From assembly GCA_038045145.1 (NCBI GenBank), contig JBBSYQ010000006.1, forward strand, positions 1 to 46,057: 46,057 bases of DNA, in the 5' to 3' direction. Below the pieces are notes generated by a model. That model was given only the letters and a program-made list of their open reading frames with translations, had not been told where the DNA came from and ran no database searches. The position numbers and the translations under genes are program-made. This DNA is from Nanobdellota archaeon (GTDB lineage: Archaea > Nanobdellota > Nanobdellia > Pacearchaeales > GW2011-AR1). Positions 238 to 43,744 of the stretch are shown piece by piece (positions within the stretch are counted from its first letter, which is position 1; each line of letters opens with the position of its first letter).

Positions 238-537
238 TTAATCGCTTATTGATTCTCCGTCAAATCCGATTTCCACGAGGAGGGATTTGATTCTCTTCCT
301 GTGGTCTCCTTGAAGTTCAATCGCGTTGTTTTTGTAAGTTCCGCCGCAGGCAAGCCTGTTTTTCAGCGTCTTTGCGATGTTCCACACATCAATTCCGCTC
401 TCAAACCCCGAGACAATAGTGTTGATTTTCCCGAATTTCTTCTTCTCGGTTGTTATCTTTATTTTTTGTGAACTTTTTATGATTTGTTCACATACACATG
501 CCTGCTTAGGCAGGCCGCACTTTGGACATATTTCCAT
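238..537 (-). CDS. sui1: translation initiation factor aIF1 / SUI1
   Basis: 99 aa with an N-terminal CPKCGLPKQACVC zinc knuckle followed by a SUI1 fold signature (KITTEKKKFGKINTIVSGF...LKNRLACGGTYKNNAIELQGDHR). Its position after L29 is common in archaea. Confidence 0.9.
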   Translation of the reverse strand: MEICPKCGLPKQACVCEQIIKSSQKIKITTEKKKFGKINTIVSGFESGIDVWNIAKTLKNRLACGGTYKNNAIELQGDHRKRIKSLLVEIGFDGESISD

Positions 538-538
538 G

Positions 539-715
539 TTATCTGTTGAGTGTGAGTATCATTGCTATGATTTTTTTTATTTCTCCTGTTCTTGAATTTT
601 TTGATCTTGACGAGTTTACTGACGATTTCACAAGTTCCATTTTAAGTTCTTTAAGTTTTGCTTCCCTTTCCTGCCTGCTCATCTTCATTATTTCCTTTGA
701 TTTTTTTGTCGCCAT
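539..715 (-). CDS. rpl29: 50S ribosomal protein uL29
   Basis: 58-aa ORF missed by the track: MATKKSKEIMKMSRQEREAKLKELKMELVKSSVNSSRSKNSRTGEIKKIIAMILTLNR. The ATG at 715 directly abuts the uS3 stop (716-718). Its TAA (539-541) lies 1 nt before the SUI1 ATG. The pattern is L29-like (EIRKMS..EL...L.ELK.EL...IKK.IA..LT). Confidence 0.8.
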   Translation of the reverse strand: MATKKSKEIMKMSRQEREAKLKELKMELVKSSVNSSRSKNSRTGEIKKIIAMILTLNR

Positions 716-1399
716 TTATTTCTTTCCTGATTTTGATTTTATTTTCTTTTGCGGTTTTGTTTCTTCTTTACTCCTTTCCGTGTTGTTTTTTATTTTTTCC
801 ATGACTCCTTCATCAAGGTATATCTTGTCTTTTAATATCGCATAAGGCGATAGTATTGCAACATTCACGCCGACGGTTCCGGGTTTTGTTTGCGCAATTG
901 CCTGCGCCCTGTCGACGACTTTCGCGCTGTCGCCGACTTTTATCATATAACCCTGTGCAAATCTCCACTGCTTTGCCCTCGCGCTCGGAAGTTTTCCGTT
1001 TAATCTTATTTCCGCCCCCAATGCTCCGGCACTCATTATCTTCTGCAGGGTTCTGTAAGCGATTATTTTAAATTTCAGCGGTCCGATATTTTCCAGCGAC
1101 GATGCAATTTCATCCGCCATTATTTGCGCATCAAATTCCGGATTTTTTATTTCATCGATGTCAACATGTGGATTTTCAAGTTTGAATTTATTTTTTAACA
1201 CGCTGGTTAATTCGGCAATTCTTTCCCCGCCCCTTCCGATTACAAGCCCGGGTTTGTTCGTGGATATGACTATCTTCTCCCCGACTGGAGTGTATTCTAT
1301 TCTGACCTTGCTTATTTTCCCTTTCCCAAGTGAAATTTTTATGTATTCCCTTATTGCGAATTCATCTTTCTTGAATTTTACGATATTTTTTTCTTCCAT
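716..1399 (-). CDS. rps3: 30S ribosomal protein uS3
   Basis: KH domain (KPGLVIGRGGERIAELT) plus the S3 C-terminal domain (GAEIRLNGKLPSARAKQWRFAQGYM). The ATG at 1399 has a GGAG 9 nt upstream, whereas the track start at 1429 is TTG. Lys-rich C-terminal tail. Confidence 0.93.
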   Translation of the reverse strand: MEEKNIVKFKKDEFAIREYIKISLGKGKISKVRIEYTPVGEKIVISTNKPGLVIGRGGERIAELTSVLKNKFKLENPHVDIDEIKNPEFDAQIMADEIASSLENIGPLKFKIIAYRTLQKIMSAGALGAEIRLNGKLPSARAKQWRFAQGYMIKVGDSAKVVDRAQAIAQTKPGTVGVNVAILSPYAILKDKIYLDEGVMEKIKNNTERSKEETKPQKKIKSKSGKK

Positions 1400-1463
1400 T
1401 ATGAAAAACTCCTGTTTTTTATTATGCAAAATATTGTCATTTTTGAAAAATTTTTTTCTTCCA

Positions 1464-2120
1464 TTAAATTTTAACCTTTGATTTTATTTTTTCTTTTCTT
1501 TCCATGGCGACAATTTTAACATGCGTTCTTTTCTTTCTTACTCTCCCGAATTTTCCAAAAGGTCTTGAAGCAATGTTTGAAACAGCTTCGCATATTATAG
1601 TATCATTAAGTCCGTTGACGCTTGAATTTGCCGAGAGTGTTTTTAGCAATTTGATAAAATGCTGCGATGTTTTTTTAGGATATCTTCCCGACATGACATT
1701 TCCCCTTTGATGGGGAATTTCCCCCCTCATCGGAACAACTCTTTTCTTTTTTATCACTTCCTCCAAATCCCTGATTGCATCCTCAATTTTTTTGTTTTTG
1801 ATGAACCTGCATACTGCAATAGCCTGCTTTGTTGAAACGGGAATGGAGTAGGCATTGACAACTGCATTTGTTTTTTTTGATTTCTCATCTTTTTTTGCGA
1901 TTTTTGTTTCTTGTGACGTGAACTTCTTGTTCGCGGAACTTTCTTTTTCTTCAATTTTCTCGTCGGACTTTATGTTTTCTTCTTTGTTTTCCTTTACCTT
2001 TTCTTCAATTTTTTCTTTTGCCTTTTCATCGGATTTTATTTTATCTTTTCTCTGCGCAACTTCATGCTTTTTCGCGGTTTTCATTCCCTTCTGTTCTGGA
2101 TTGTAATTTTTTTCTGTCAT
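1464..2120 (-). CDS. rpl22: 50S ribosomal protein uL22 with ~85-aa Lys/Glu-rich N-terminal extension
   Basis: The C-terminal ~130 aa match the uL22 pattern (VSTKQAIAVCRFIKNKKIEDAIRDLEEVI...VPMRG...HQRG...GRYPKK...). Residues 1-85 are a low-complexity K/E-rich stretch. Confidence 0.9.
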   Translation of the reverse strand: MTEKNYNPEQKGMKTAKKHEVAQRKDKIKSDEKAKEKIEEKVKENKEENIKSDEKIEEKESSANKKFTSQETKIAKKDEKSKKTNAVVNAYSIPVSTKQAIAVCRFIKNKKIEDAIRDLEEVIKKKRVVPMRGEIPHQRGNVMSGRYPKKTSQHFIKLLKTLSANSSVNGLNDTIICEAVSNIASRPFGKFGRVRKKRTHVKIVAMERKEKIKSKVKI

Positions 2121-2121
2121 T

Positions 2122-2463
2122 TTAAATTAAACTAGCTAAATGGGGATATTTAGTTCCATATGTGAAAAAAACTTTTGATGACAACACTCCTTTATCTGTT
2201 ATTGTTATGCATTTCCTGTAAAGATGATAACCTACAAAACAATCTTCTGTATTAGCATGCGGTCTGCAAAAATCAAACCCCTCATCTCCTGTTCCCTTCA
2301 ATCTCTCTCCAATAAAAATTGCAGGCCCGTAATACTCATTATGTTCATTAAACCCATTTATTTGTCCGCTTCCTAAACTAATTATAACAATGTCTCCTTC
2401 TTCAAGTAGTTCCATGTCTTTTTCATTTTCTAATTTTTTTATTTTAATTAAATCTGTTTTCAT
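2122..2463 (-). CDS. hypothetical 113-aa protein inserted between uS19 and uL22
   Basis: Its ATG at 2463 abuts the uS19 stop (2464-2466). Its stop at 2122-2124 lies 1 nt before the uL22 ATG (2120). The sequence is non-repetitive and globular-looking, and I recognise no family. Confidence 0.6.
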   Translation of the reverse strand: MKTDLIKIKKLENEKDMELLEEGDIVIISLGSGQINGFNEHNEYYGPAIFIGERLKGTGDEGFDFCRPHANTEDCFVGYHLYRKCITITDKGVLSSKVFFTYGTKYPHLASLI

Positions 2464-2880
2464 TTATTTCTTGGATTTTGATTTACTTCCTTTTGTCGCG
2501 CCCACTCCCGCCTTTCCGTGTTTTATTCTTCCTCTCGAAGGTGCAAATTCCCCGAATTTATGCCCGAGCATTTCAACTCTTACTTCAACAGGCACGAAAC
2601 TTTTTCCGTTATATACACTGATTTTCATTCCAACCATGTTTGGGACAATGAGAAAATCCCTGTTGTGGGTTTTTATCAATTTGTTCTTCTGTATTTTTGT
2701 CTTCGCTCTGTTGATAAAACTCTCAATTTCCTGAAATTGCCTGAGCAAAAATCTTCTCTGTCGCGACTTTAAATATTTTGCAAACTCACGAGTGTCAAGC
2801 TCTTTCAGCTCTTCAATTGTTTTTCCCCTGAATGTGAATTGTTTTTTCTTTGTTTCTTCAACAGATTTTATTTCAGCCAT
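2464..2880 (-). CDS. rps19: 30S ribosomal protein uS19
   Basis: FTFRGKTIEEL...NRDFLIVPNMVGMKISVYNGKSFVPVEVRVEMLGHKFGEFAPSR is a canonical archaeal S19 core. Confidence 0.95.
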   Translation of the reverse strand: MAEIKSVEETKKKQFTFRGKTIEELKELDTREFAKYLKSRQRRFLLRQFQEIESFINRAKTKIQKNKLIKTHNRDFLIVPNMVGMKISVYNGKSFVPVEVRVEMLGHKFGEFAPSRGRIKHGKAGVGATKGSKSKSKK

Positions 2881-2881
2881 T

Positions 2882-3580
2882 TTATCTTTTTCTCCTTCCT
2901 GTTCTTCTTGGTCTTAGGTGTCCGACTCTTCTTCCCGGCGGAGCATTTCTTTTTGCGATTTTGCTTTTTGGATTTTTGCCTCTTCCCGAGCCGAACGGAT
3001 GGTCAATTGCATTGACTTTAACTGCAGAGGTTCTCGGCCATAATTTACCCCTGGATTTTTTTATAAAATGTTGCTTCCCTGCTTTTACAATAGGTTTATC
3101 CAGTCTTCCCGCGCCTGCAATAATTCCGATAACAGCTCGGCAATTCTGGTTGAATTCTTTTTCTTTTTTCGACGGCATTAGCACAAAAACTTTCTCTCCC
3201 ACAACTTTGTTCACGACGGCGGAACTGCCGGCTGTTTTTATGAAAACTCCGCCGTCTCCTGGGCGTGATTCAACATTATAGATTCTTGTTTTTACAGGAA
3301 TGTCTTTCAATTTCAAAATATTGCCCCCTTTAATTTCTTTTTCAAAATTTATTTTTTGTCCTTCAATCATTCCGCTGAATGCAGGCATGAAAAAAATTCC
3401 GTCGCGGTATTTTATCTTTGCGATTGGCGCGGTGTGCCCTTTTGAGTTTATCAGATTTATAACTTCCCCTTCTCCGTTAAGTTCTCTTGGATATTTCAGC
3501 CTGTAAATGAACGCCCTTCTCCTGACTCTGTATGTCCCGCTTCCCTTCCCTCTTGCCTGTGAAATTATTCTTTTTGCCAT
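2882..3580 (-). CDS. rpl2: 50S ribosomal protein uL2
   Basis: GRRNAPPGRRVGH..., HPFGSGRGK and GDGGVFIKTAGSSA are uL2 hallmarks. Position in the operon fits. Confidence 0.95.
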   Translation of the reverse strand: MAKRIISQARGKGSGTYRVRRRAFIYRLKYPRELNGEGEVINLINSKGHTAPIAKIKYRDGIFFMPAFSGMIEGQKINFEKEIKGGNILKLKDIPVKTRIYNVESRPGDGGVFIKTAGSSAVVNKVVGEKVFVLMPSKKEKEFNQNCRAVIGIIAGAGRLDKPIVKAGKQHFIKKSRGKLWPRTSAVKVNAIDHPFGSGRGKNPKSKIAKRNAPPGRRVGHLRPRRTGRRKR

Positions 3581-3581
3581 T

Positions 3582-3821
3582 TTATATCATTCCCAATTTC
3601 GTCGCCACGTCGATGGCGGGAAATTCTTTTTTTAATTTGACATACGCATATTTTTTGTTTCCTCTGATGAGTGTCCTTACTCTTTCAACTTTAACTTCAA
3701 ATAATTCCTGAATTTCTTTTTTTATTTCTTCGCTTGTTTTTTCTTTTTCAGTTTTAAATGTCAAAACATTTTTGCTCTCTATAAGCATTACCGCTTTCTC
3801 GGTTGTTATTGGTTTTATCAT
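3582..3821 (-). CDS. rpl23: 50S ribosomal protein uL23
   Basis: 79 aa: IKPITTEKAVMLIESKNVLTFKTEKEKTSEEIKKEIQELFEVKVERVRTL... has the uL23 pattern and sits directly upstream of uL2. Confidence 0.9.
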   Translation of the reverse strand: MIKPITTEKAVMLIESKNVLTFKTEKEKTSEEIKKEIQELFEVKVERVRTLIRGNKKYAYVKLKKEFPAIDVATKLGMI

Positions 3822-4483
3822 TTTATCAACACCTCGGGAATTTCATGTTGTGAATATTCAGGAAAAAGATTTTCTCCAAACATCAGTCTGTAAAAACATT
3901 CTGCTGTAAGTTTGCAGTCTTCAAGCGCGTTGTGCGGTTTTCCATCGTGGACAACTTCTCTTCCTTTTAGTTCTATTCTCTCGTCGGGAATTCCGCAGAA
4001 TTTCAAAACATTTGAAAGATTCATGTTGCTTTCATAACTATTTGCATCTTTGCTTTGCTTGATAAAAAATTTATTATAAGTATCAAAATATTTTATTTGT
4101 GCAATTGTATGTGTATCAAATGCCCGATACTGAAATGTGCGTTTAAGGTTATACTTGTCTGCCTTTACCCATAAAAATCCAATGTCAAACTGGGGATTCT
4201 GGCACAAAAAAATTCTGAATTTCCTTTTTTCAATCCATCTAAAAAATATCTCAAGCATTTCTTTCTGTGATTGTTCCTTGGGATTTCTTAATTCGTCCTC
4301 GGTTTTTCCTGTAACTTTCAATGAGTTCTCATTAATTTCATCTTCATCGTCGATTCTTGAATCCTGTAAAAATTCTTCTTTGGTGTTTAAGTCAATTGCA
4401 CCTATCTGCCAGATTCCGCACTTTTCCATGCTCAAACCAGACGTTTCCAAATCAACAACAATCGGCAATAATGTTTTGTTCAT
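3818..4483 (-). CDS. DEDDh-family 3'-5' exonuclease (DnaQ/RNase T-like)
   Basis: Exo I is VVDLETSGL, Exo II is QNPQFDIGFLW and Exo III is HNALEDCKLTAECF (H-x4-D). It has ATGA overlaps with the upstream ORF62 (4480-4483) and the downstream uL23 (3818-3821). Confidence 0.82.
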   Translation of the reverse strand: MNKTLLPIVVDLETSGLSMEKCGIWQIGAIDLNTKEEFLQDSRIDDEDEINENSLKVTGKTEDELRNPKEQSQKEMLEIFFRWIEKRKFRIFLCQNPQFDIGFLWVKADKYNLKRTFQYRAFDTHTIAQIKYFDTYNKFFIKQSKDANSYESNMNLSNVLKFCGIPDERIELKGREVVHDGKPHNALEDCKLTAECFYRLMFGENLFPEYSQHEIPEVLIK

Positions 4484-4668
4484 ATTTCTTCTCCTGCTTG
4501 CATTTCAAGTCCGCTTATGATTGGAGCATAACTCTGGCACATTGTTGCATCTCTTTTATCATACTCATTTCCTGGAATAAATCCTTTGTCACATTTTCTT
4601 CTCGTTTCACATGTGTCTCTATAACTGCATTCTCCTAATTCTCGTTTTTCAGTTCCGTACTTGTTCAT
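4480..4668 (-). CDS. hypothetical 62-aa Cys-containing protein
   Basis: ATGA overlaps at both ends, with uL4 (4665-4668) and the exonuclease (4480-4483). Four Cys residues (C14, C20, C26, C44). Support comes only from translational-coupling geometry. Confidence 0.45.
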   Translation of the reverse strand: MNKYGTEKRELGECSYRDTCETRRKCDKGFIPGNEYDKRDATMCQSYAPIISGLEMQAGEEI

Positions 4669-5462
4669 TTTAATTTCTCCGCGAGATTTTTAATTGCATT
4701 TTCAGTGTAAACAACAAGTCTTCCCAGCCCGCCTTTAGCCAAATCATTCACGCCGAGATTTCCCGCATTTGCAACGTCAAAAATTTTCGTTTTCATTTTT
4801 TCATTTTTTCCTGTTACAATAAGCACTCCCGCGCTTTTTTTGTATCTTCTTCCTCTTGATTTTCCCTTTCCGCTTCTTATTTTTTTGTTTCTCTCTGAAA
4901 TTTCAGACAAGTTGCCGAGAATTTTTTTCACGCTCTCAATAAGTTGTTTTGTTCCTAATTCCGTTATTCCCGATTCAACTATAAACGGCAGCGATTTTAT
5001 TTCAGTATCTTTTAATCGCGCATATTTTTTTCTTATCATCTTCTCGTTTGCCGTCGCGCTTAGCGCAGATTTAAGCGCGGTTTCCATTTCTTTTTTGTTA
5101 ATTCTCTTTTTTTCAAGCATTGAAGAAATTTTCGGCGGATGTGCCCTCATTCCGCCTCTTGCAAAAGGAACTTCTGCCGCTTCCCAGTTAAACTGGCTTC
5201 CTTTTTGCGAAAATATTTTTCTCGGAACTCTTGAACTTCCTCTTCCGTAGCCGCTTCTCCATACATGCCTTGCATGGCTTAGTTTTCCTTTTGCAGAATG
5301 CTGTTTCCCTGCAACGGGAGAAGGCGAATATGGTTGTCTCCTTTTTTTCGTCTCAAGAACTTTTGCAACAATGTCCTCGCGGATTTTCTCTGAGAAAAAT
5401 TTCGGCAACTCAATGCTTCCTTTTTCCTTTCCGTCGATGCCGAAGATTTTTGTCTTTGTCAT
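4665..5462 (-). CDS. rpl4: 50S ribosomal protein uL4
   Basis: GRGSSRVPR, FARGGMRAHPPK and SGKGKSRGRRYK are archaeal L4 (L1e) hallmarks. Position between uL3 and uL23. Confidence 0.95.
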   Translation of the reverse strand: MTKTKIFGIDGKEKGSIELPKFFSEKIREDIVAKVLETKKRRQPYSPSPVAGKQHSAKGKLSHARHVWRSGYGRGSSRVPRKIFSQKGSQFNWEAAEVPFARGGMRAHPPKISSMLEKKRINKKEMETALKSALSATANEKMIRKKYARLKDTEIKSLPFIVESGITELGTKQLIESVKKILGNLSEISERNKKIRSGKGKSRGRRYKKSAGVLIVTGKNEKMKTKIFDVANAGNLGVNDLAKGGLGRLVVYTENAIKNLAEKLK

Positions 5463-5653
5463 ACTTTTACCTCAAGTCTCACCGACTTTAATGAATCATT
5501 TTCTTTAATCATATTTCTTATTTGCGCTTCATATTTACGAACCATTGTCAAAAATAAATCCTGGTTGGTTGACGGCTCTTCTTTGCCTTTTTCATAAAGC
5601 AGGTAACTTATGCCTTCTCTTTTAACCCTTGCGACAAATTCATAGTCTTTCAT
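5459..5653 (-). CDS. hypothetical 64-aa protein between uL3 and uL4
   Basis: ATGA overlaps with the uL3 stop (5650-5653) and the uL4 start (5459-5462). No family recognised. Confidence 0.5.
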   Translation of the reverse strand: MKDYEFVARVKREGISYLLYEKGKEEPSTNQDLFLTMVRKYEAQIRNMIKENDSLKSVRLEVKV

Positions 5654-6594
5654 CTCAACTCCACAAGTTCATAATTTTTCTTTACTTGTCTTCTCGTTTC
5701 CCTCAAAGGTTGGGTTGCAATAAGTTGCCTTTTCGCCGCTCCTTGCACGCTTCCGTTGACAATTATATAATCCGTTTTTATGTTTCCGTAATTTTTTATT
5801 CCCGTTATTTTTCCGTCGGCTTTTTTCACGCCGATTATTTTTCCGTTATAAATTGCTCTTGTGAACATTCCAAGCTGTCCTGCCATCGGCGTTCTGAAAG
5901 TTACTCTTGCAGGATGCCATGGTCCCAAGCTTCCAGGTCTTCTGACACCTTTCTCCGACTTGTGGCTTTTTAGTGTTATCCCGAATCTTTTTACAGGACC
6001 TTGAAGTCCTTTTCCTTTCGTGAGTCCGCGAAGGTCAATTAAATTTCCCTTTGCGAAAACATTTTCCACAGGAATTTCCTTGTTAAAATTTTCTTTGACA
6101 AAATTGAGTTTCTCCTCGACACTTCCTCTTAATCCTATTTCCGCAATGTCGGGAGTTTTTTTTATTCCTGTTTTTTTAACTTGCGAATAAGCAATGACTC
6201 TCACGTCGTCGTAATCTTTGACGTCTTCAATTTTCTTTTTGCTCTTCGGCAGTTTTAATTTTCTCTTCAGTTCCTTGTCAAGATTTTCAGCAATGACTTC
6301 ATTGGCAACTTTTCCGTTTTTGTAAAATCTTGCGGAGAAAATTTTTAACGGCGGGCATTCAAGAAGTGTTACAGGAATTATCGTAGTTCTTCCCTTTGTC
6401 ATCGAATCCGGCGTGTTGTCCTTGACATAAGCTGACTTCATTCCTACTTTGTAGCATATAAATCCCTTCAAACCAATCAAATTAGAATTATTAGGATTAA
6501 TTGCATTCCAGTTCACTCTAGGCAAGAATTTACTGGCTCTTTTCCTCGGCCAGAACTGCAGACTTCCTTTCCTTGGTGTTCTCTTCGTAGGCAT
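5650..6594 (-). CDS. rpl3: 50S ribosomal protein uL3
   Basis: MPTKRTPRKGSLQFWPRKRA is the canonical archaeal L3 N-terminus, found at ATG 6594. The track start at 6702 adds 36 implausible residues. FRTPMAGQLGMF and WHPARV motifs are present. The stop codon is TGA. Confidence 0.95.
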   Translation of the reverse strand: MPTKRTPRKGSLQFWPRKRASKFLPRVNWNAINPNNSNLIGLKGFICYKVGMKSAYVKDNTPDSMTKGRTTIIPVTLLECPPLKIFSARFYKNGKVANEVIAENLDKELKRKLKLPKSKKKIEDVKDYDDVRVIAYSQVKKTGIKKTPDIAEIGLRGSVEEKLNFVKENFNKEIPVENVFAKGNLIDLRGLTKGKGLQGPVKRFGITLKSHKSEKGVRRPGSLGPWHPARVTFRTPMAGQLGMFTRAIYNGKIIGVKKADGKITGIKNYGNIKTDYIIVNGSVQGAAKRQLIATQPLRETRRQVKKNYELVELR

Positions 6595-6730
6595 TTCTAA
6601 ATGATGCGGATAACATTTTATGTTAAGTTCCCTGGAATGAAATATGTAGAAAAAACAGGTTTTTAAAGATTTGCAGAAGAATGTATTGTAACATAAAAAC
6701 ATTTTTAAATTCCATTCCTGAAAAACTATT

Positions 6731-11029: not shown

Positions 11030-11037
11030 TTTTTTTT
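11030..11037 (+). terminator. T8 run directly after tRNA-Ser
   Basis: Eight consecutive T immediately 3' of the discriminator base. Oligo-T is the usual archaeal termination signal. Confidence 0.5.
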
Positions 11038-11539
11038 ATTCAAAATAGAAGTTAGGTGTGTCGAGTACGATTTCTTTTGCAAATTGAAGTAAAGTGCCGA
11101 GATTATGTCTTTCAAATTTTTTTGAAATTGTTATATGTGGATTAAATTCAGGATAAATTGTGGCTGGTTCTTCTTTGGAAAAATTTCCAAGAATTTTTCT
11201 TCCATATTCGTCTAAATTTGGCCAGACATGTCTTATTTGTCTCTCAATATCGGAAAGCAGCATTTTATTTATTGCTCTGAATGTTTCATTTTCATACCTC
11301 AAAACCAAACAACCTTCAAAAATATCAAAGAAATATGTTCTGAAATCCAATTCTATTGGTAATTTCTTTTTTAGTCTGTCTAAAAGTTCGCTATCAAAAA
11401 ACACAGGAATTCTCGCGGAAAAATAAACCGTTGAGTGAAAAATGTCTTTAGGATTTAAGATTAATCCTTGTCCTTTACAATATTCCAAAATATCTTCTCC
11501 ACTTCCTCTTTCAACCAAAAGTTCAACGACACTTTTCAT
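11036..11539 (-). CDS. 2H phosphoesterase superfamily protein (LigT / cyclic phosphodiesterase-like)
   Basis: Two H-x-T/S-x motifs about 100 aa apart: FHSTVYF and PHITISK. Size of 167 aa is typical. ATGA overlap with the upstream helicase (11536-11539). Confidence 0.65.
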   Translation of the reverse strand: MKSVVELLVERGSGEDILEYCKGQGLILNPKDIFHSTVYFSARIPVFFDSELLDRLKKKLPIELDFRTYFFDIFEGCLVLRYENETFRAINKMLLSDIERQIRHVWPNLDEYGRKILGNFSKEEPATIYPEFNPHITISKKFERHNLGTLLQFAKEIVLDTPNFYFE

Positions 11540-13464
11540 TTTTCAAAAAACTCCAGCACTCTCGTGTCGGGCGATAAAAGATAAACATGGTCTTCTCTGA
11601 ATCTTAATCCGCGATAAATTTTCTGCAATAATTCCCTTCTTGCCTTGTCTTTATACATCTCCCAATAATGCATAGGTTTTGTTTCTTTAAGAATTTTCCA
11701 GAAAGCATCCTCGGGATTTGGATTCGGGAATTTTGTAAAAACAATGCTGTTGCATTCTTTTCCAGGAAAATCAATTCCTCTTGAACAGCGCGTAGTAAAA
11801 ATAACGTCTGTTTTTCCCTTTTTAAAATCTTCCACCAGTTTGTTTGATTTGTCTTCGCTCTGCATTTTCATGAGTTCTTCCTTGCTGATTAAATTCTTGA
11901 AATCAAATTTTTGCTTCTCGTTTTCCGAAGGCAAATCCGAGAACGCGCTCACATGAACCAAAACAGGTTTTTTTGCCGTCTCAAGACACTTGTCAAGCGA
12001 CTTGAGATAATGCTCCCTGCTTAATTTTCCGTTGGAAAAATTTTCATATTTGCAGTCTGTTTCCATTCCGGTTCTAATTACTGATATCGCGCCTTGTTGC
12101 TGCGTTTCAGCTTCTATAATCTTAAAATTATCAAGCCCGAAAATATTTTTAAGAACCTTATCTGAATGAATTGTTCCCGACATCAAAACAAGAACCTTGT
12201 TTTTTTCAACCATTCCCCTGAACTTTTTGGCAAGGTTTGTTGTTACAAGATTTATAATTAAATTATTTTCTTTTTTGTTAAAATCCAAATAAGTCTCGTC
12301 AAAGAAATCCTTGAACATGATTGCTGTTTCCTCAACATCCGAGATGTAACTTTCCTCGTCTATTTCTTTCAAAAAATCATCGGACTCAAGAAATATCCTG
12401 AATAAATCATACAATCCTGTGTTTTTCAGCGGGATTATTTTCTTGGAATAAACTGCTTCGTTGATTCTCCTGTCTTTTCTAAGATGATTTATTATTTCAT
12501 ACATCTCCTCGATAACTTTTAATGATGATTCGCTTTCCGTCGCCATTTGTATGAGTGAATTCTGGAATTTGTCTATGTTGATGCTTCTTTGATTTGTAAA
12601 ACTGTCAAGAAACTCGTCGCACTCGTCAATTATTTCAACCTCCGTCAGCGGCTTCCTGTTTAAAGCAGATTCAAGCTGGTATTTTAACGAGTTAAAAATA
12701 ATCACGTCGGAATCAACATAAGAGTTAAACTGTTCATAAAATTTGCATCCTGGTTTTCTCTGATAAATCGTGAATTTTATGTTATTCAACCCAAGATATT
12801 CTTTTTTATTTTGATAACTGCCGTTTTTTAATTCATACTTCTCCGGCAGAACAGGGCTCCAGTACGGGCAAACGCTCGCAACAGGAAGTCTTTTTACATC
12901 GTTGATTTTATTTATGTTTTTTATGTTGACATTATTATTTTGTTTAAGATATTCGCGGAGTTTGCCGAAATTTTTTTCTTTTATCTCTATCTTGCAGGGT
13001 ATTTCTAAATTGTCCGCGGATTTGTCCTCTGGTTTCGGCTTTTCCACGGAATCAAATATGTCATTCAATTTTGAATTTATTTCTCTTTTTATTTTTGGAA
13101 TTCCTATGTCATTGTCTTCGAGAAATTTGCATGCGTGATTGTTTCTTCCGGTTATAACGCTGATTTTTAATCTGCTTCCGTCATTTTTTAACAGATACTT
13201 GTCTGTTTCATAATCTCTTTTATACTGATTTTGCAGGTTCTTCCCGGGCACAATGATTGATGTCTTTCCAAGATTCTTCGCAATGTTCAGCGCAATTGCA
13301 CTTTTTCCCGTGCCGCAAACGCCGCGGATGAAAATTATTTTCTCGCCGCTATGAATAGTTTCCAAAACTTCGTCTACAATATCATCCTGCGTTTTCCCAT
13401 TGGAAAAAACTAAAGGTTCTAAGAATTTTTCTTTTTTGTATAAATTCCACATTTTAATTAACAT
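11536..13464 (-). CDS. SF2 DNA helicase, XPD/Rad3/DinG-like
   Basis: Walker A is GVCGTGKS and motif II is IIDECDEF. The C-terminal TTRCSRGIDFPGKECNSIVFTKFPNPNP resembles the XPD/DinG motif VI region. Four spaced Cys residues between motifs I and II (HACKF, IPCKI, SVCPYW, PGCKF) could be an Fe-S cluster. Confidence 0.7.
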   Translation of the reverse strand: MLIKMWNLYKKEKFLEPLVFSNGKTQDDIVDEVLETIHSGEKIIFIRGVCGTGKSAIALNIAKNLGKTSIIVPGKNLQNQYKRDYETDKYLLKNDGSRLKISVITGRNNHACKFLEDNDIGIPKIKREINSKLNDIFDSVEKPKPEDKSADNLEIPCKIEIKEKNFGKLREYLKQNNNVNIKNINKINDVKRLPVASVCPYWSPVLPEKYELKNGSYQNKKEYLGLNNIKFTIYQRKPGCKFYEQFNSYVDSDVIIFNSLKYQLESALNRKPLTEVEIIDECDEFLDSFTNQRSINIDKFQNSLIQMATESESSLKVIEEMYEIINHLRKDRRINEAVYSKKIIPLKNTGLYDLFRIFLESDDFLKEIDEESYISDVEETAIMFKDFFDETYLDFNKKENNLIINLVTTNLAKKFRGMVEKNKVLVLMSGTIHSDKVLKNIFGLDNFKIIEAETQQQGAISVIRTGMETDCKYENFSNGKLSREHYLKSLDKCLETAKKPVLVHVSAFSDLPSENEKQKFDFKNLISKEELMKMQSEDKSNKLVEDFKKGKTDVIFTTRCSRGIDFPGKECNSIVFTKFPNPNPEDAFWKILKETKPMHYWEMYKDKARRELLQKIYRGLRFREDHVYLLSPDTRVLEFFEK

Positions 13465-34692: not shown

Positions 34693-37470
34693 TTAAGCTG
34701 ATGAATTTGTTGTTTCTGTTACAAGCGTAGCGCTTGTCGCAGAAGTTCCTTTATACTTTGTTCCACCGTCTGTTGTTACAGCCTGTGTTCTTAAGTATTT
34801 TGCAGCATTTACAGTGTCATCTCTTTCGTAACCCGCAACAAGCAATGCAATCTTGCCTGTAGTGTACTTGTCAGCAAAGCTTTGTATCAGGAATTGTCCT
34901 GAACCAACGCCTGTCTGCTCTGTAAAGTCAGCACTACAATAAGCTCCTCCTAAAAGTGTAGCAGCAGCGCTGTTAATACAGCTTCCGCCAATAACAATTA
35001 AGTTCTTTGTGCTTACTGATGCAACTTCAGAGTCTGTTACAAGAACATCTCCAAGTGCAGTTACGCCTGCTGAACCAGTTGTTCCTGCAGTTACAGTCGC
35101 ATCGTTTTTAGCAACATACAATTGCGCATACACTTGTTCATCAGGATAACTTAATGTAGCAAGTGGTTGGTCTGAATCTCCAGAGTCAAGTGTCAATATG
35201 CTTCCCCACAAATCAGCAGCTTCTGTTACTTTGCTGTTACTTGATAGAGAAGTTCTCCATAGTGATGAAACATTGCTCCATGTATCTCCAGAACCTGTAG
35301 TATCTACTCCTAGTCCATCATCTCCAGTTCTACCTGTTTCAAGCAAAATGATGTTTGCATGGTATACGCTGTTATCGTCTTTTTCTTCCCATACAATCAA
35401 TGCTGATTGGTTAATCAAACCTCCTGTAACTGGGTCTGCAAGATAAATCATTGCTGGTTGACCTGCTGGCTCGCTTGTTGATGTTCCACCATTAGTCAAA
35501 TTATGGTTCGTAAATACAAATTTAAGTCCGCCTACGCTCCAGTTAAGCGTGTTGTTTTCCATAGTAGTGGCGTGATAACCGCTCGTATTAAGGTATCCAG
35601 TAGCTCCATCACGAGTTATGTTCCACATAGAGTTGTACTCTGCTATACTTCCAGGTGAAGTTTGAACTACTGTAGCACTTTCATATCCATCTCCGTCTGG
35701 AATTTTGATTTCTGTGATGTTGTATTGAATTACATTTCCAGCCCTTATTCCAGTGCTATTGAATAGCAATTCTGTTGGTTGATAAAATGCAACCTTTGCT
35801 CCTTTTGATGTTTGTATCGTTGGGAACAAAACTACAACTCCGTTTCCACTGCTATCTGGATAATCCAAATGAACTTGGTAGCTTTCTGAGGAAATGCCCG
35901 CAGCGCCATCTAAATAAACGCCGTAAGTTTTTCCACCTATTATAACGCTTCCAACTCCATCAGATGTCCAAATAGTTTTTGGAAGAGTTTCTCCTGACAT
36001 CACATCTGTGAATTCAACTTCATCGCCCGCAGTGTTACTTGAAATGTCTGATGAATCGTTCTTGGCATTTGCTAGTTTTAACAAATAACCTTCGTCTTCA
36101 TTTCCTACAACAACATAACTTTGACGAGTGATATTGCCCATTTCAGCTACTGTAAGATTTCTGTTGTCATCATCAATCATTAATTGAGGACCGCCTGTTA
36201 CACCCGGTCTAACATTCCCTACAATATCTTTAGTCCATTGGAATTCTTTTTCATTGCCTCTATATTCTTTGAATTTTACATTCATCTTATCATCACTGTT
36301 TGCAGTTATGGTAATGGCTTCTCTTGCTGTTGAATCTCTTGCGATATTCAATCCAGCAAAATTTACCTTGAATGTTCCGTAGAGAGGGTCAACAAAAGAT
36401 TCCCCTGCTTTGATAGCATCCATATCTGATTCTGGCGCATACACGCTTATAGTCAATGAACTCAAATTATTTGGGTTTCCAGTTTCAAAGTCAACTAATG
36501 TTCCATCAATGCTGGAATCGTCTTCTCCTGTTTTAACAGCACTGTTATCTTCCAGAGTTACTTTATCACTTCCGGCTACAATTGTTGCAGATAATTTTAA
36601 GTTTGTTTCATCTGCAGTTGTTACCGCAATTGTGATTCCGTTAATTTTCTTTGAAGCAGCTTCGTTAATTTCCTTACTATCGCTTTTTCCCGTACTATCT
36701 GTAACCCTTACACTTGCAGCACTGTCTGAAGCAGAAATTAATTCAATAGTATATGTTGCTCCTGCGACAGTTACTTCTGCTGTTGGTGCATCACTGCTTA
36801 AATCTAATTTTTTAGCACTTTTCAAGAGTACAATTGTATTAGTGTCAGTTGAAGAACTTATAGTAAAATCCATTCCAAATAACTTTATGTTTTGACCTTC
36901 TGAATCAGCATGGCTAAAGTTTACAGCTTTGCTAAATGTAGCAGTTGTGTTATATATGTAATTAGCTTGTGTCGTACTTGTTGTTAAAGCGTAGTTTGGG
37001 TCATCAGAAGTTGCAGGTTGCCTTTTAAAGGTAATTCTTGGATTTGAACCAATGTCAATTATTTGAGTCATTGAAGCATCTACATTTCCTGAAAAAGAAT
37101 CGTCCATTAATACAGTTGGGAGATTAGCTTTTGTTAATACGTTTGTTACTGTGTTCAAACTGTCATTAACATAAATCTTTGTTCCGCCTGTAAATAAAGC
37201 AGCAGCTTCTCCTGAAACACTTCCTCCAGTTGTTCCTGATGTTGTGCTCATATATGTCTGCAAGTTACCTTGTATGTTTCCTGCTTCAACAGCATCTAAT
37301 ATAGATACCCCTGAACCAGTTCCATATACAACAGCTACGCTTGCAACTCCTCCGGACACGAATGGTGCCGGATAGGTTGCAGCAGCAGCAACGCCTGCAG
37401 TCATACCAACCATCAATGCACTTGCTCCTATTGCTGATATTTTCTTAAAACTCTTTTTTAAATTAAACAT
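34693..37470 (-). CDS. candidate S-layer / major surface glycoprotein (925 aa)
   Basis: Signal peptide ...GVAAAATYP. Thr/Ser/Gly/Asn-rich with many N-x-S/T sequons and no TM anchor. Strong GGAGGT Shine-Dalgarno 8 nt upstream of the ATG (reverse complement of acctcc at 37485-37490). Visibly less AT-rich than its neighbours. Confidence 0.65.
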   Translation of the reverse strand: MFNLKKSFKKISAIGASALMVGMTAGVAAAATYPAPFVSGGVASVAVVYGTGSGVSILDAVEAGNIQGNLQTYMSTTSGTTGGSVSGEAAALFTGGTKIYVNDSLNTVTNVLTKANLPTVLMDDSFSGNVDASMTQIIDIGSNPRITFKRQPATSDDPNYALTTSTTQANYIYNTTATFSKAVNFSHADSEGQNIKLFGMDFTISSSTDTNTIVLLKSAKKLDLSSDAPTAEVTVAGATYTIELISASDSAASVRVTDSTGKSDSKEINEAASKKINGITIAVTTADETNLKLSATIVAGSDKVTLEDNSAVKTGEDDSSIDGTLVDFETGNPNNLSSLTISVYAPESDMDAIKAGESFVDPLYGTFKVNFAGLNIARDSTAREAITITANSDDKMNVKFKEYRGNEKEFQWTKDIVGNVRPGVTGGPQLMIDDDNRNLTVAEMGNITRQSYVVVGNEDEGYLLKLANAKNDSSDISSNTAGDEVEFTDVMSGETLPKTIWTSDGVGSVIIGGKTYGVYLDGAAGISSESYQVHLDYPDSSGNGVVVLFPTIQTSKGAKVAFYQPTELLFNSTGIRAGNVIQYNITEIKIPDGDGYESATVVQTSPGSIAEYNSMWNITRDGATGYLNTSGYHATTMENNTLNWSVGGLKFVFTNHNLTNGGTSTSEPAGQPAMIYLADPVTGGLINQSALIVWEEKDDNSVYHANIILLETGRTGDDGLGVDTTGSGDTWSNVSSLWRTSLSSNSKVTEAADLWGSILTLDSGDSDQPLATLSYPDEQVYAQLYVAKNDATVTAGTTGSAGVTALGDVLVTDSEVASVSTKNLIVIGGSCINSAAATLLGGAYCSADFTEQTGVGSGQFLIQSFADKYTTGKIALLVAGYERDDTVNAAKYLRTQAVTTDGGTKYKGTSATSATLVTETTNSSA

Positions 37471-41252: not shown

Positions 41253-41930
41253 ATGAAGAAAGATGAATTGAAAAAAGCCATATTAAAAGAATTAAGAAAT
41301 CCTAAGCTTTACACAGAAAACATAATAAATTATCTTGAAGAAAATCTGGACGATGCTTTTAATGTTTGTTGTCGTAAAAATCTTTCCATAAATGAAAAAT
41401 ATCCAGATTCAAAATATAAAGGGCAATTAGGACAAAAAACAGTTTTTCTAACTGTAAGAATGTTTGATTTATGGGAAAATGCGATTATTGACACTATTTC
41501 AGAACATCTAAAAAAGAAATTTCCAGAAATAAAAGTTATTCCAATTAACGACCCTATTGGAGATATGGGAATAGTTTTTCCAGATGGAGAAATTATGAGG
41601 TGGGAAATTAAATCAAGTCAAGCATTAAATTCCTTTACGGGTGCTACCCATTCAGCTTCAAAATGTGATAATTACATTTTGATAAATTATGCTATTAATA
41701 GAGATTTGAAATTAAGCGAAGATAAAAATAAAGGATTTATTACAGAATTGGCGGTTTTTGTTTGGGATGATATGGAAGCAAAATGGCTCGGAGAACATAG
41801 CGAACATAGTAGTTTTACATCATTGAAAATTCCCGCTGAAATAAAATCAAGTCGTCCAGAAATCATTGTTATTGGAAAATTAGAGCCAAAAACTAAATGG
41901 TCCAATATAGTCAGAAAAAAATTATTTTGA
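41253..41930 (+). CDS. putative type II restriction endonuclease (PD-(D/E)xK)
   Basis: The candidate catalytic core PIGDMGIVFPDGEIMRWEIKSS gives D...E-x-K. It is convergent with the methyltransferase gene and overlaps it by 9 nt. Confidence 0.5.
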   Translation: MKKDELKKAILKELRNPKLYTENIINYLEENLDDAFNVCCRKNLSINEKYPDSKYKGQLGQKTVFLTVRMFDLWENAIIDTISEHLKKKFPEIKVIPINDPIGDMGIVFPDGEIMRWEIKSSQALNSFTGATHSASKCDNYILINYAINRDLKLSEDKNKGFITELAVFVWDDMEAKWLGEHSEHSSFTSLKIPAEIKSSRPEIIVIGKLEPKTKWSNIVRKKLF

Positions 41931-42827
41931 AAATTCGTTAAGGTTTTTATTTGGGAAAGATTGTTTCAATCTTTTTTCTATTAAGTCTATGTATTTCTGA
42001 TTAACATCAAAACCGATATATTTTCTTTTCATTTTTAACGAAACTTCTGCAACAGTTCCGCCCCCCATAAATGGGTCAAGAATTATATCTCCCTCATCAG
42101 TAAGCCATTTTATAAAAAATTCTGGTAATTGTGGATGAAATGGTGCTGGATGTTCCAACCCTCTTAATGCTGAACCCGTATCAAATCTAAAAACCGTTAT
42201 TGGTTTTTTTCCTAATGGATGTGGTTTACTGCTTCCTCTTTGAGAAAGTTCCGTTGTTCCATCTGCTCTTACAATATCATTACCATGAACTTTATTTTTA
42301 AATCTCTTTAATGAAACCTCTGCATAAGGTTCTCTTATTCTGTCCGTATATGTCTTGAAATTTTTGCTATCTTTTACAAAATGGAAAATATATTCCACTC
42401 TATCATTCAACCTTTTTTCTCCCGTCATAGGCAAAGCTGATTTTTTGAACCAAATATATCTATCAAACAATTTTAATCCTGTTTCTTTAACTATTCTATG
42501 AACCAACTCAAAAACATAAGTGCTTCTTTCTCCGTTTGTAGCTCTATCATTTATGTTAAGTATAAATGAACCAGTTGGTTTTAAAAATCTCTGGGCTTCC
42601 TTAAACAATTCTAAGAACCAATTAACATATTCTTCAGGATTAAAAACTTCAACAAATTTTCCATAAGAAACTGTATCTGCATAAGGCGGAGAAGTAACAA
42701 CTAAATCAATGTAATTATCTGGAAGTTTTTTAGACAATTCCATGCAATCTCCAAGATAAGTTTTATTTAATTCAATCTCATTAATTTTATCCGCCATTCT
42801 TTTATACTTTTTCTTATAATCTTTCAT
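41922..42827 (-). CDS. beta-class N4-cytosine/N6-adenine DNA methyltransferase
   Basis: Motif IV is VVTSPPYAD near the N-terminus and motif I is LDPFMGGGTVAEV near the C-terminus, which is the beta-class order. SPPY favours N4-cytosine. ATGA overlap with the transposase stop (42824-42827). Confidence 0.88.
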   Translation of the reverse strand: MKDYKKKYKRMADKINEIELNKTYLGDCMELSKKLPDNYIDLVVTSPPYADTVSYGKFVEVFNPEEYVNWFLELFKEAQRFLKPTGSFILNINDRATNGERSTYVFELVHRIVKETGLKLFDRYIWFKKSALPMTGEKRLNDRVEYIFHFVKDSKNFKTYTDRIREPYAEVSLKRFKNKVHGNDIVRADGTTELSQRGSSKPHPLGKKPITVFRFDTGSALRGLEHPAPFHPQLPEFFIKWLTDEGDIILDPFMGGGTVAEVSLKMKRKYIGFDVNQKYIDLIEKRLKQSFPNKNLNEFSK

Positions 42828-43744
42828 TTTAAATTATTTGTGTTTGAAAGTTTAATCAAGTCAAGCCATTTGTTATTGCCAAGTTTTAATTCAGGAATGG
42901 CTAATTTGTAAGGTTCACATCCTATGGCTTGATGTGAACGAATAAAATTATAGTAGATTGAAAGTCCTTTCATAATAGCGTTTCTCGCTTCTATTGAATT
43001 ATGAACGCCTCTGAAAGTTTTTGTCCTTGCTCTTATGTTGCTGTGCATTCTTTCAACTTTATGATTGAAGCCCTCATTTTTTAACTGCGTAACTCTGTTA
43101 TGCAATACATTATGTTTTCCTAATTTATTATTGTAGCCGAAAACCGATTTAACGACTTTCAAATATGCAAAAAATCCGTCTGTCGTGCATATTTTTATTT
43201 GCTCATCAGTTTTTTCTTTGGCTTTCCCAATAACTTTTTTTATTTCATTTCCGCTTCTTGATTTGCAGAAATTAGAAGCAACCATAAAACGAGTTTCAGT
43301 ATCAATAGCGTCAATAAACCAAGAATGATTTTTCTTTCCCTTTCTTCCATATTCCATCTCATCAACCTGCATTTCTTCACCGCAGTTTATTTTTAGATTA
43401 TCAGTGAAGCCATAAATCATTTTAGAATATTTTAAAATCCATTTATAAATTGAAACATTAGAGCTGTTGTGCGGATAGAAAGCCTGCAAATGCTCCTGAA
43501 CTTTTCTCGTTGAAATTCCTCTATAAAATAAATCCAAACATAAAGTTACTTTTTGCGGAGCATTTTTCATTTTCCAAAATCCTAAATCTTCAACAAACCT
43601 TTTTCCACATTCTTGACAGCCGTATCTCTGTATTAATCCTCTGTTCTGTGTTCTTCGCTGTCCTCTTTTTATTATCTTCTCTGAATTGCATTTAGGACAT
43701 TTCAATACTTTTTTATATTCTATGTTGTTGTTTGTTTGCTCCAT
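42824..43744 (-). CDS. DDE transposase, IS6-like, with N-terminal zinc ribbon
   Basis: CPKCNS...CQECGKRF zinc ribbon. The DDE triad context is QVDEM..., ICTTDGFFAY and NHKVERMHSNIRARTK. The C-terminus YYNFIRSHQAIG is typical of IS6-type enzymes. Confidence 0.8.
   Translation of the reverse strand: MEQTNNNIEYKKVLKCPKCNSEKIIKRGQRRTQNRGLIQRYGCQECGKRFVEDLGFWKMKNAPQKVTLCLDLFYRGISTRKVQEHLQAFYPHNSSNVSIYKWILKYSKMIYGFTDNLKINCGEEMQVDEMEYGRKGKKNHSWFIDAIDTETRFMVASNFCKSRSGNEIKKVIGKAKEKTDEQIKICTTDGFFAYLKVVKSVFGYNNKLGKHNVLHNRVTQLKNEGFNHKVERMHSNIRARTKTFRGVHNSIEARNAIMKGLSIYYNFIRSHQAIGCEPYKLAIPELKLGNNKWLDLIKLSNTNNLK

Follow-up and report, generated by a model that had tools for sequence, protein, structure and literature searches.

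A conserved DEDDh-type 3′–5′ exonuclease gene in the uL4/uL23 slot of a Pacearchaeota-type ribosomal protein operon

The DEDDh exonucleases of the DnaQ-H superfamily are recognized by three short motifs, Exo I (D-x-E), Exo II (D) and Exo III (H-x4-D), carried on an RNase H-like alpha/beta fold of the DnaQ type. The subject of this report is a gene of this class, here termed EXO, which lies within a ribosomal protein (r-protein) operon of a Nanobdellota archaeon (Pacearchaeales; GW2011-AR1). It was encountered in a stretch of 46,057 nucleotides (assembly GCA_038045145.1, contig JBBSYQ010000006.1, positions 1 to 46,057), hereafter the window, which is a low-GC (35.5%) archaeal contig. Several described enzymes resemble its product. 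RNase T (Rnt; PDB 2f96, 2is3, 3nh1) is a gammaproteobacterial enzyme that trims the 3′ ends of stable RNA, the role favoured here for EXO, and is likewise a single-domain DEDDh protein of about 215 amino acids. Oligoribonuclease (Orn) and REXO2 are small, dimeric DEDDh housekeeping enzymes, with which EXO shares the clearing of short RNA as a candidate role. The founder enzyme of the Rv2179c-like family (PF16473) has a reported preference for poly(A). A further group, comprising DnaQ, PolC, Cas2-DnaQ and Cas2-DEDDh (8h18/8h2f, 2p1j, 8fy9/8fyc), shares an ETxGL Exo I and an HxALxD Exo III with EXO.

Enzyme genes are also known from archaeal translation clusters. The gene for the RNase P subunit Rpp29 is found in their uL29-uS17 stretch, although an RNase P subunit differs in class from a DEDDh exonuclease. 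The GINS-associated nuclease (GAN), a RecJ relative, is encoded in a predicted operon with S15 and S3Ae (uS15 and eS1; PMC3307487), and resembles EXO in being a nucleic-acid enzyme gene among r-protein genes, but it is of the DHH rather than the DEDDh type. Similarly, PCNA-PriS-Gins15 adjoins L44E-S27E-aIF2alpha-Nop10 in Archaea (PMC2643942). For the uL4/uL23 slot, which belongs to the most conserved stretch of the operon, no report of a gene at this position was found in the literature. None of the papers found linked an exonuclease with both Pacearchaeota and ribosomal proteins, or a DEDDh enzyme with DPANN, and no characterised member of the EXO subfamily was found; a survey of ribosome biogenesis contained nothing specific on DPANN nucleases.

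The EXO protein is, judging from its sequence and predicted structure, a real, conserved and probably catalytically competent single-domain DEDDh enzyme. Its enzyme class is ordinary; the conserved slot between uL4 and uL23 represents an unusual operon architecture. The relevant features of the window, all on the minus strand, are given below with the basis of each assignment.

3818..4483, minus strand: EXO, coding sequence of a predicted 221-amino-acid DEDDh 3′–5′ exonuclease (open reading frame (ORF) list, Pfam, homologues, AlphaFold model)
4442..4453, minus strand: Exo I motif D11-L-E13-T, predicted metal-binding Asp and Glu (translation; D11 and E13 invariant in the alignment)
4175..4201, minus strand: Exo II motif QNPQFDIGF with D100 (translation; D100 invariant, P97, Q98 and F99 nearly so)
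3917..3934, minus strand: Exo III motif H184-N-A-L-E-D189, predicted general-base His and fourth acidic residue (DNA and alignment)
3821..3877, minus strand: conserved C-terminal tail GENLFPEYSQHEIPEVLIK of EXO (alignment consensus; ordered in the AlphaFold model)
4480..4483, minus strand: ATGA overlap of the orf62 stop and EXO start (tcat on the plus strand)
3818..3821, minus strand: ATGA overlap of the EXO stop and uL23 start (tcat on the plus strand)
4480..4668, minus strand: orf62, a 62-amino-acid Cys-containing orphan ORF between uL4 and EXO (ORF list)
4665..5462, minus strand: uL4 gene (Pfam Ribosomal_L4, 1.8e-21)
3582..3821, minus strand: uL23 gene (Pfam Ribosomal_L23, 3e-11)
5650..6702, minus strand: uL3 gene, as the listed ORF (Pfam)
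2882..3580, minus strand: uL2 gene (Pfam)
238..6702, minus strand: EXO-carrying operon, in the order uL3, orf64, uL4, orf62, EXO, uL23, uL2, uS19, orf113, uL22, uS3, uL29, SUI1 (ORF list, Pfam)

The three motifs are intact, as the original prediction had held, and can be read in both the translation and the DNA: DLET at residues 11-14, QNPQFDIGF at residues 95-103 and HNALED at residues 184-189, the last corresponding to CAC AAC GCG CTT GAA GAC in the reverse complement of 3917-3934. The Pfam family RNase_T (PF00929) covers residues 8-197 with 51 bits (cut-off 24; 3.3e-13). The Rv2179c-like family is also matched above its cut-off and over its full length (31.8 bits, cut-off 27; 1.4e-7; residues 8-196, model positions 3-172 of 177), and many EXO homologues carry this precomputed domain; the match is overlapped by the stronger PF00929 match and is weak as a subfamily assignment. 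The AlphaFold2 model has a mean predicted local distance difference test (pLDDT) score of 95.9 and a predicted template modelling (TM) score of 0.91. In this model, a beta-hairpin is placed immediately ahead of the catalytic His and the C-terminal tail (residues 203-221) is ordered, with a pLDDT of 97 over residues 201-220. The superfamily hallmarks are all present in EXO, the fold being indicated by the model, the Foldseek matches and PF00929.

A search of 5.8 billion proteins returned 646 homologues. The best 120 are 190-234 amino acids in length and 50-65% identical to EXO, and the named ones come from Pacearchaeota and Nanoarchaeota metagenome-assembled genomes. In an alignment of 26 homologues within this identity range (A1), the residues D11, E13, D100, H184 and D189 are invariant, as are W25, Q26, R66, Q73, W83, C94, Y111, D123, H125 and S152. 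The H-x4-D motif is retained by 79 of 81 archaeal family members. The hallmark of the family is a tail of consensus GKxL[FL]xE[FY]xx[FY]x[VI]PxxL, recovered in A1 and in a wider alignment (A3). Across 47 species, the median identity of EXO to the window protein is 55%, compared with 48% (uL22) to 71% (uL2, uS3) for the flanking r-proteins. This places EXO within the r-protein range, so that selection on it is of the same order as that acting on the ribosomal proteins; the conservation shows strong purifying selection. The earlier statement that the enzyme is probably active is upheld by the invariant catalytic residues together with the confident fold.

The distribution of the gene was followed in a scan of one genome per GTDB species. 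This identified 220 genomes with an EXO relative, from which the best 80 loci were kept, a set biased toward the clade of the window. Operon context was scored by tblastn with the operon proteins of the window, and exact ORF boundaries were obtained for 51 loci. In 52 of the 80, the order uL3-uL4-EXO-uL23-uL2-uS19-uL22-uS3 is found on one strand. Of the 51 loci, 39 have a 4-nucleotide (nt) overlap between the uL4 stop and the EXO start and three more a 1-nt overlap (42 of 51 together); at the other junction, the stop of EXO and the start of uL23 overlap in 43. As these overlaps occur at both junctions in most loci, EXO appears to be a translationally coupled cistron of the operon and not a loose neighbour, and in the clade of the window its translation would be obligatorily tied to that of the r-proteins. 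In the window, the ATGA overlaps at both ends leave no space for a promoter or terminator of its own. The claim that the gene is wired into the ribosomal operon thus holds across species. Its position between uL4 and uL23 is borne out by Pfam for both flanking genes; toward uL4, however, it is not immediate in the window, where orf62 intervenes and overlaps each neighbour by 4 nt.

Some operon loci carry variations on this arrangement. Locus L059 has a second EXO paralogue (MKKLPIVLDIEASGLD...) at 4955-5152, directly after uS17, besides the copy in the uL4/uL23 slot; the locus ends inside the paralogue. In two archaeal loci (L041 3615-4001 and L047 456-842), a Nudix hydrolase gene is located between uL4 and EXO. 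Locus L037 has a 501-amino-acid ORF without a Pfam match between EXO and uL23 (4205-5710), overlapping both. Two contigs of assembly JBDRNS01 (L001 and L019) each carry uL4-EXO-uL23, and this bin probably mixes two strains or species.

In the remaining 28 of the 80 loci, there is no r-protein operon within 4 kb of EXO. In 13-15 of these, apgM, EXO and Gins51 lie on one strand, often overlapping, flanked by FtsY on the upstream side and by oppositely oriented eS1 and eL42 genes downstream. In three loci, including the complete genome CP061211, the order is uS15, a RecJ/GAN-like DHH protein, a 64-amino-acid ORF, EXO and aIF2-alpha. Three others have an HTH protein, EXO and a cysteine desulfurase, and the rest are idiosyncratic. 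The non-operon share grows with distance, from 4 of the 40 loci nearest the window to 24 of the next 40, so that the operon figure of 65% overstates the family-wide share. In a neighbour-joining tree of EXO, copies from inside and outside the operon are intermingled, and the star-like branches do not fix the ancestral site. The interleaving fits a single orthologous EXO gene that would have been relocated several times. These other locations are not random, as they fall within the mixed replication/translation clusters described for Archaea, and the pattern shows a persistent link between EXO and growth-regulated informational genes. No polymerase or Cas gene was seen among the EXO neighbours.

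Comparison with solved structures and curated families separates EXO from each of the well-described enzymes. The single sequence matches the PolC exonuclease domain (2p1j, 5e-6), DnaQ (8h18, 2e-5) and RNase T (2f96, 1e-4). A Foldseek search against the PDB gave 120 matches at E<=1e-3, and the 50 listed are all DEDDh-type exonucleases or exonuclease domains. The top ranks are held together by the Cas2-DnaQ domain 8h2f (TMt 0.77, 25% identity) and many RNase T entries, at E of about 1e-8, TM of about 0.6 and 17-25% identity; 3′hExo, Cap18, PolC, TREX-like and ERI proteins follow. ERI1/3′hExo and ERI2/3 are generic DEDDh fold matches of 13-18% identity. RNase T is matched with a fold probability of 1.0 and a TM of about 0.6 at only 17-23% identity, and lacks the family-specific C-terminal tail and the beta-hairpin before Exo III. 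In the structural comparison proposed earlier, with RNase T and Rex, RNase T entries are interleaved with DnaQ-type domains; Rex/REXO entries are absent from both the sequence matches and the top 50 fold matches. Orn structures are missing from these 50 as well, and no solved Rv2179c structure is among the top fold matches. DnaQ and PolC differ from EXO, which is a stand-alone protein in an archaeon without Pol III.

Assignment to a known equivalog fails in each case considered. As RNase T, EXO scores 36.4 bits against a cut-off of 246.2 (TIGR01298), and as oligoribonuclease 16.5 against 106 (NF003765). The epsilon subunit of Pol III is rejected on scores of 33.1 against 222.7 bits (TIGR01406) and 33.9 against 71.5 (TIGR00573), and on the tail of EXO, which is short, ordered and family-specific. 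A PolC exonuclease domain is likewise rejected, as EXO is a 221-amino-acid stand-alone protein, compared with about 1400 amino acids for PolC, and scores 41.9 against 873 bits (NF001688). On these scores, EXO is best placed in a distinct subfamily of the DnaQ-H superfamily that is not RNase T, Orn, epsilon or PolC. None of the sequence or fold comparisons reveals its substrate. A viral or mobile origin was also considered and rejected: tblastn against 50,697 phage records gave only matches of 26-31% identity, viral structures gave generic or weak matches, and the GC content of EXO, overall and at third codon positions (GC3), matches that of the neighbouring genes.

Beyond the archaeal core, the family extends into a large set of relatives. 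An exhaustive hidden Markov model search of 1.84 billion cluster representatives, with clusters defined at 50% identity, yielded 90 clusters at E<=1e-30, a number that rises to 411 at E<=1e-10 and to 1420 at E<=1e-3. Outside the archaeal core, these include a continuum of proteins of about 200 amino acids, which align from end to end and carry the tail GKxL[FL]xE[FY]xx[FY]P[VI]PxxL. A broad-family locus search, for which a 13-sequence alignment subset was used, placed this sister family on bacterial contigs (L081-L163) that resemble the Candidate Phyla Radiation (CPR), with genes for bL9, bL27, DnaK, gyrase A, PilM/N, and S41 and M23 peptidases. A recurrent context, in about 14-21 of 80 loci, comprises Ctp, bL9, bL27 on the opposite strand, a small Ada-Zn membrane protein, the EXO relative and a 150-amino-acid ORF without a Pfam match; BipA is also found near EXO relatives. 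The CPR-like proteins are about 30% identical to the window protein. Gly replaces the last Asp of H-x4-D in 63 of 78, and all aligned members (A2, A3) have a Glu eleven residues past the catalytic His. These substitutions suggest that the active site of the sister family has either been altered or lost its activity.

Certain distant relatives are fused to other domains or have RNA-linked neighbours. In the tandem fusion P0127, the second domain has retained WQIGA and the C-terminal tail but neither D-x-E nor the His; in P0151, it is the first domain that is degenerate, with D-x-K at Exo I. Such fusions with one degenerate domain suggest a dimer in which one subunit may be purely structural or substrate-binding. 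RNase T also divides labour between its subunits, as an obligate homodimer in which a basic nucleotide-binding patch on one subunit serves the active site of its partner. A DEAD-box RNA helicase gene lies 40 nt downstream of the P0151 tandem gene (L166 5001-7751), P0277 (L083 6001-7035) is an EXO fused to a PemK/MazF-type toxin domain, and ThiI, MnmA and SpoU tRNA-modification genes lie upstream of the EXO relative in L081. Most of these fusion and neighbour variants lean toward RNA, as single cases or distant relatives.

The mechanism favoured here is that EXO would act as an active two-metal-ion exonuclease, shortening single-stranded 3′ ends nucleotide by nucleotide. D11, E13, D100 and D189 would hold the metals and H184 would serve as the general base. 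The enzyme probably works as a homodimer, as the tandem fusions indirectly suggest. Since EXO belongs to the uL3-uL4-uL23-uL2 operon as an integral cistron with coupled translation, its synthesis would track ribosome production. RNA is the most likely substrate: EXO may trim the 3′ tails of stable RNA and/or clear short oligoribonucleotides, and would, in this reduced archaeal lineage, take the functional place of RNase T, oligoribonuclease or RNase AS. In favour of this proposal are the wiring into the operon and the additional paralogue that one species carries there, the presence of translation genes beside EXO at each main location, the match to the Rv2179c-like family, and the fusions and neighbours of relatives that are linked to RNA. 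The non-operon copies too adjoin translation genes, namely those for aIF2-alpha, uS15, eS1 and eL42. A growth-coupled enzyme for RNA 3′-end trimming and/or oligoribonucleotide clearing is thus put forward as a tentative assignment, with a chance somewhat short of even.

A number of observations weigh against an RNA substrate. The family profile is closest to DnaQ (8h18, 5e-11), the PolC exonuclease (2p1j, 1e-9) and Cas2-DEDDh (1e-8), with RNase T at 4e-5, and the NCBIfam ranking is also led by PolC/DnaQ models, with all equivalog models far under their cut-offs. The fold search interleaves RNase T with DnaQ-type domains and does not split RNA- from DNA-acting enzymes. No RNA-binding accessory domain is present in EXO. 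The RNA-linked neighbours belong to relatives that are only about 30% identical to it, many with an altered active site. Outside the operon, 14 loci have Gins51 directly after EXO and in the same orientation, a 15th also contains Gins51, and three further loci have the RecJ/GAN-like gene ahead of EXO. Since replication genes sit in archaeal translation clusters (PMC2643942, PMC3307487), and a true replication nuclease can reside in an r-protein operon, the operon address does not separate an RNA role from a DNA role. Finally, the operon junctions of this lineage accept many unrelated small ORFs, as described below. Such a permissive insertion site weakens any inference from location, and EXO may lie where it does because the site tolerates insertions and is highly expressed, and not because of what the enzyme does.

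The original prediction had gone further, proposing a dedicated role in rRNA or tRNA 3′-end maturation or in ribosome quality control. This role is not established. It was to be abandoned if the closest homologues were DNA polymerase proofreading subunits in a DNA-repair context, or if the gene lay at unrelated loci in sister genomes, and each was found in part. The profile does rank the proofreading-type domains ahead of RNase T, but the fold search ranks them together; and the gene does lie elsewhere in a minority of loci, among them those beside Gins51 or the RecJ/GAN-like gene.

The strongest competing explanation is that EXO is a DNA-directed 3′-to-5′ exonuclease of replication or repair, either a trans-acting proofreader or a 3′-flap or mismatch trimmer working with the Cdc45-MCM-GINS (CMG)-type replisome, and is co-expressed with r-protein genes only through shared growth-regulated clusters. 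This would account for the nearest solved-structure sequences being DnaQ, the PolC exonuclease and Cas2-DEDDh and for the PolC/DnaQ lead in NCBIfam, although the margin over RNase T is small and confined mainly to the N-terminal 110-130 residues. A point against a separate proofreader is that family B polymerases of Archaea as a rule have a proofreading domain of their own. The adjacency to Gins51, often with overlap, and the position after uS15 and the RecJ/GAN-like DHH gene are in keeping with a replication role, and the Nudix gene between uL4 and EXO in two loci could encode a MutT-like sanitiser. Published precedents exist in GAN with S15/S3Ae (PMC3307487) and in the PCNA-PriS-Gins15 cluster (PMC2643942). 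Nonetheless, the commonest location of EXO is between two r-protein genes and not by replication genes, and no PCNA-interacting peptide (PIP) box is evident in the conserved tail. A reading of this tail as such a box was rejected, as it has no Qxx[ILM]xx[FY][FY] motif and is ordered in the model, unlike a disordered docking peptide. A DNA-directed role is on the whole unlikely, though it merits serious weight.

It has also been considered that EXO is a general nucleotide-salvage nuclease, degrading RNA and DNA oligonucleotides to mononucleotides in a host without de novo synthesis, the operon site serving for strong constitutive expression. Pacearchaeota-type archaea and CPR bacteria are generally described as lacking nucleotide biosynthesis, and the family is common to Pacearchaeota-type archaea and CPR-like bacteria, both ultra-small groundwater organisms. 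Activity on both RNA and DNA is a property of such DEDDh enzymes as RNase T and Orn, and the RNase T structures matched in the fold search are complexes with DNA. The uptake of many unrelated genes at operon junctions is consistent with a site chosen for expression alone, but the slot and coupling of EXO are conserved far beyond those of the other inserted ORFs. EXO has no signal peptide and is not accompanied by genes for uptake, and salvage leaves unexplained its recurrence by informational genes at all three main locations. General salvage is thus doubtful.

A more ambitious version of the RNA proposal regards EXO and the CPR sister family as one module, shared by ultra-small cells and passed between CPR bacteria and DPANN archaea. 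The EXO of Pacearchaeota would then be a ribosome-biogenesis or ribosome-associated factor, stoichiometrically co-produced with the ribosome, that finishes rRNA 3′ ends and replaces the work of the exosome or RNase R, and the uL4/uL23 slot would be functional and not accidental. This extension is improbable as it stands. The possibility that the ORF arose by chance, or is what remains of a decayed or inactivated gene, is refuted by the 646 homologues, the invariant catalytic residues, the r-protein-level conservation and the confident model, and with no point found in its favour it has next to no chance of being correct.

The junctions of r-protein operons in this lineage are hypervariable. 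Small ORFs of 40-170 amino acids occur on the same strand at every junction, with 95 such ORFs in 52 loci, of which 67 have no relative among them; for example, 19 of 49 loci have one between uL3 and uL4 and 22 of 50 between uL23 and uL2. They are also predicted by independent gene callers, and for some families the junction occupied varies from species to species. Among the inserts, EXO alone is both widely conserved and confined to a single slot. The window itself has three junction ORFs, all on the minus strand: orf113 (2122-2463), orf62 (4480-4668) and orf64 (5459-5653). The orf62 product has four Cys, no homologue among the 5.8 billion proteins and no Pfam or NCBIfam family above threshold; orf62 is an orphan gene or else non-coding spacer sequence, open by chance. 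For orf64, no match was found in any of 80 related loci. The orf113 product has five homologues of 60-73% identity, with many invariant residues including C66, C75 and H80, which indicates a real conserved small protein. Its gene lies between uS19 and uL22 in the window and between uL2 and uS19 in the three homologue loci that could be placed, L004, L167 (4001-4342) and L168 (2650-2991). The AlphaFold model of this protein is all-beta (pLDDT 64.5) with no significant PDB match.

Other features of the operon and of the window may be recorded. The real start of uL3 is probably an internal ATG at 6594 (MPTKRTPRKG...), upstream of which is an AT-rich, TATA-like sequence, a candidate promoter. The uL22 protein (1464-2120, minus strand) has a Lys/Glu-rich N-terminal extension of about 90 amino acids ahead of its Pfam domain, and the SUI1 gene of the operon is SUI1/aIF1 by Pfam. 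Elsewhere on the minus strand, an N6/N4 DNA methylase adjoins an IS240-type DDE transposase with a zinc ribbon (41922-43744), a 925-amino-acid ORF has no Pfam match (34693-37470), and an XPD-like helicase (Helicase_C_2) is followed by a 167-amino-acid ORF with a weak Acb1-like match (11036-13464). The window sequence occurs in metagenome DNA runs from groundwater; the sequencing runs listed as containing it are groundwater DNA runs only, with no RNA run among them.

Few gene orders in cellular life are as well conserved as the uL3-uL4-uL23-uL2 string, and a conserved, coupled enzyme gene inside it is unusual. Within a large archaeal lineage that has not been cultured, EXO is a candidate housekeeping nuclease, and its family is an easy target for expression and assay. 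The sharing of the family with CPR-like bacteria and the hypervariable small ORFs bear on gene flow and genome plasticity in ultra-small organisms. Should the substrate be DNA, EXO would add a stand-alone DnaQ-like nuclease to the archaeal replisome context. Should it be RNA, EXO would put a name to a missing 3′ trimming or nanoRNA-clearing activity of reduced archaea.

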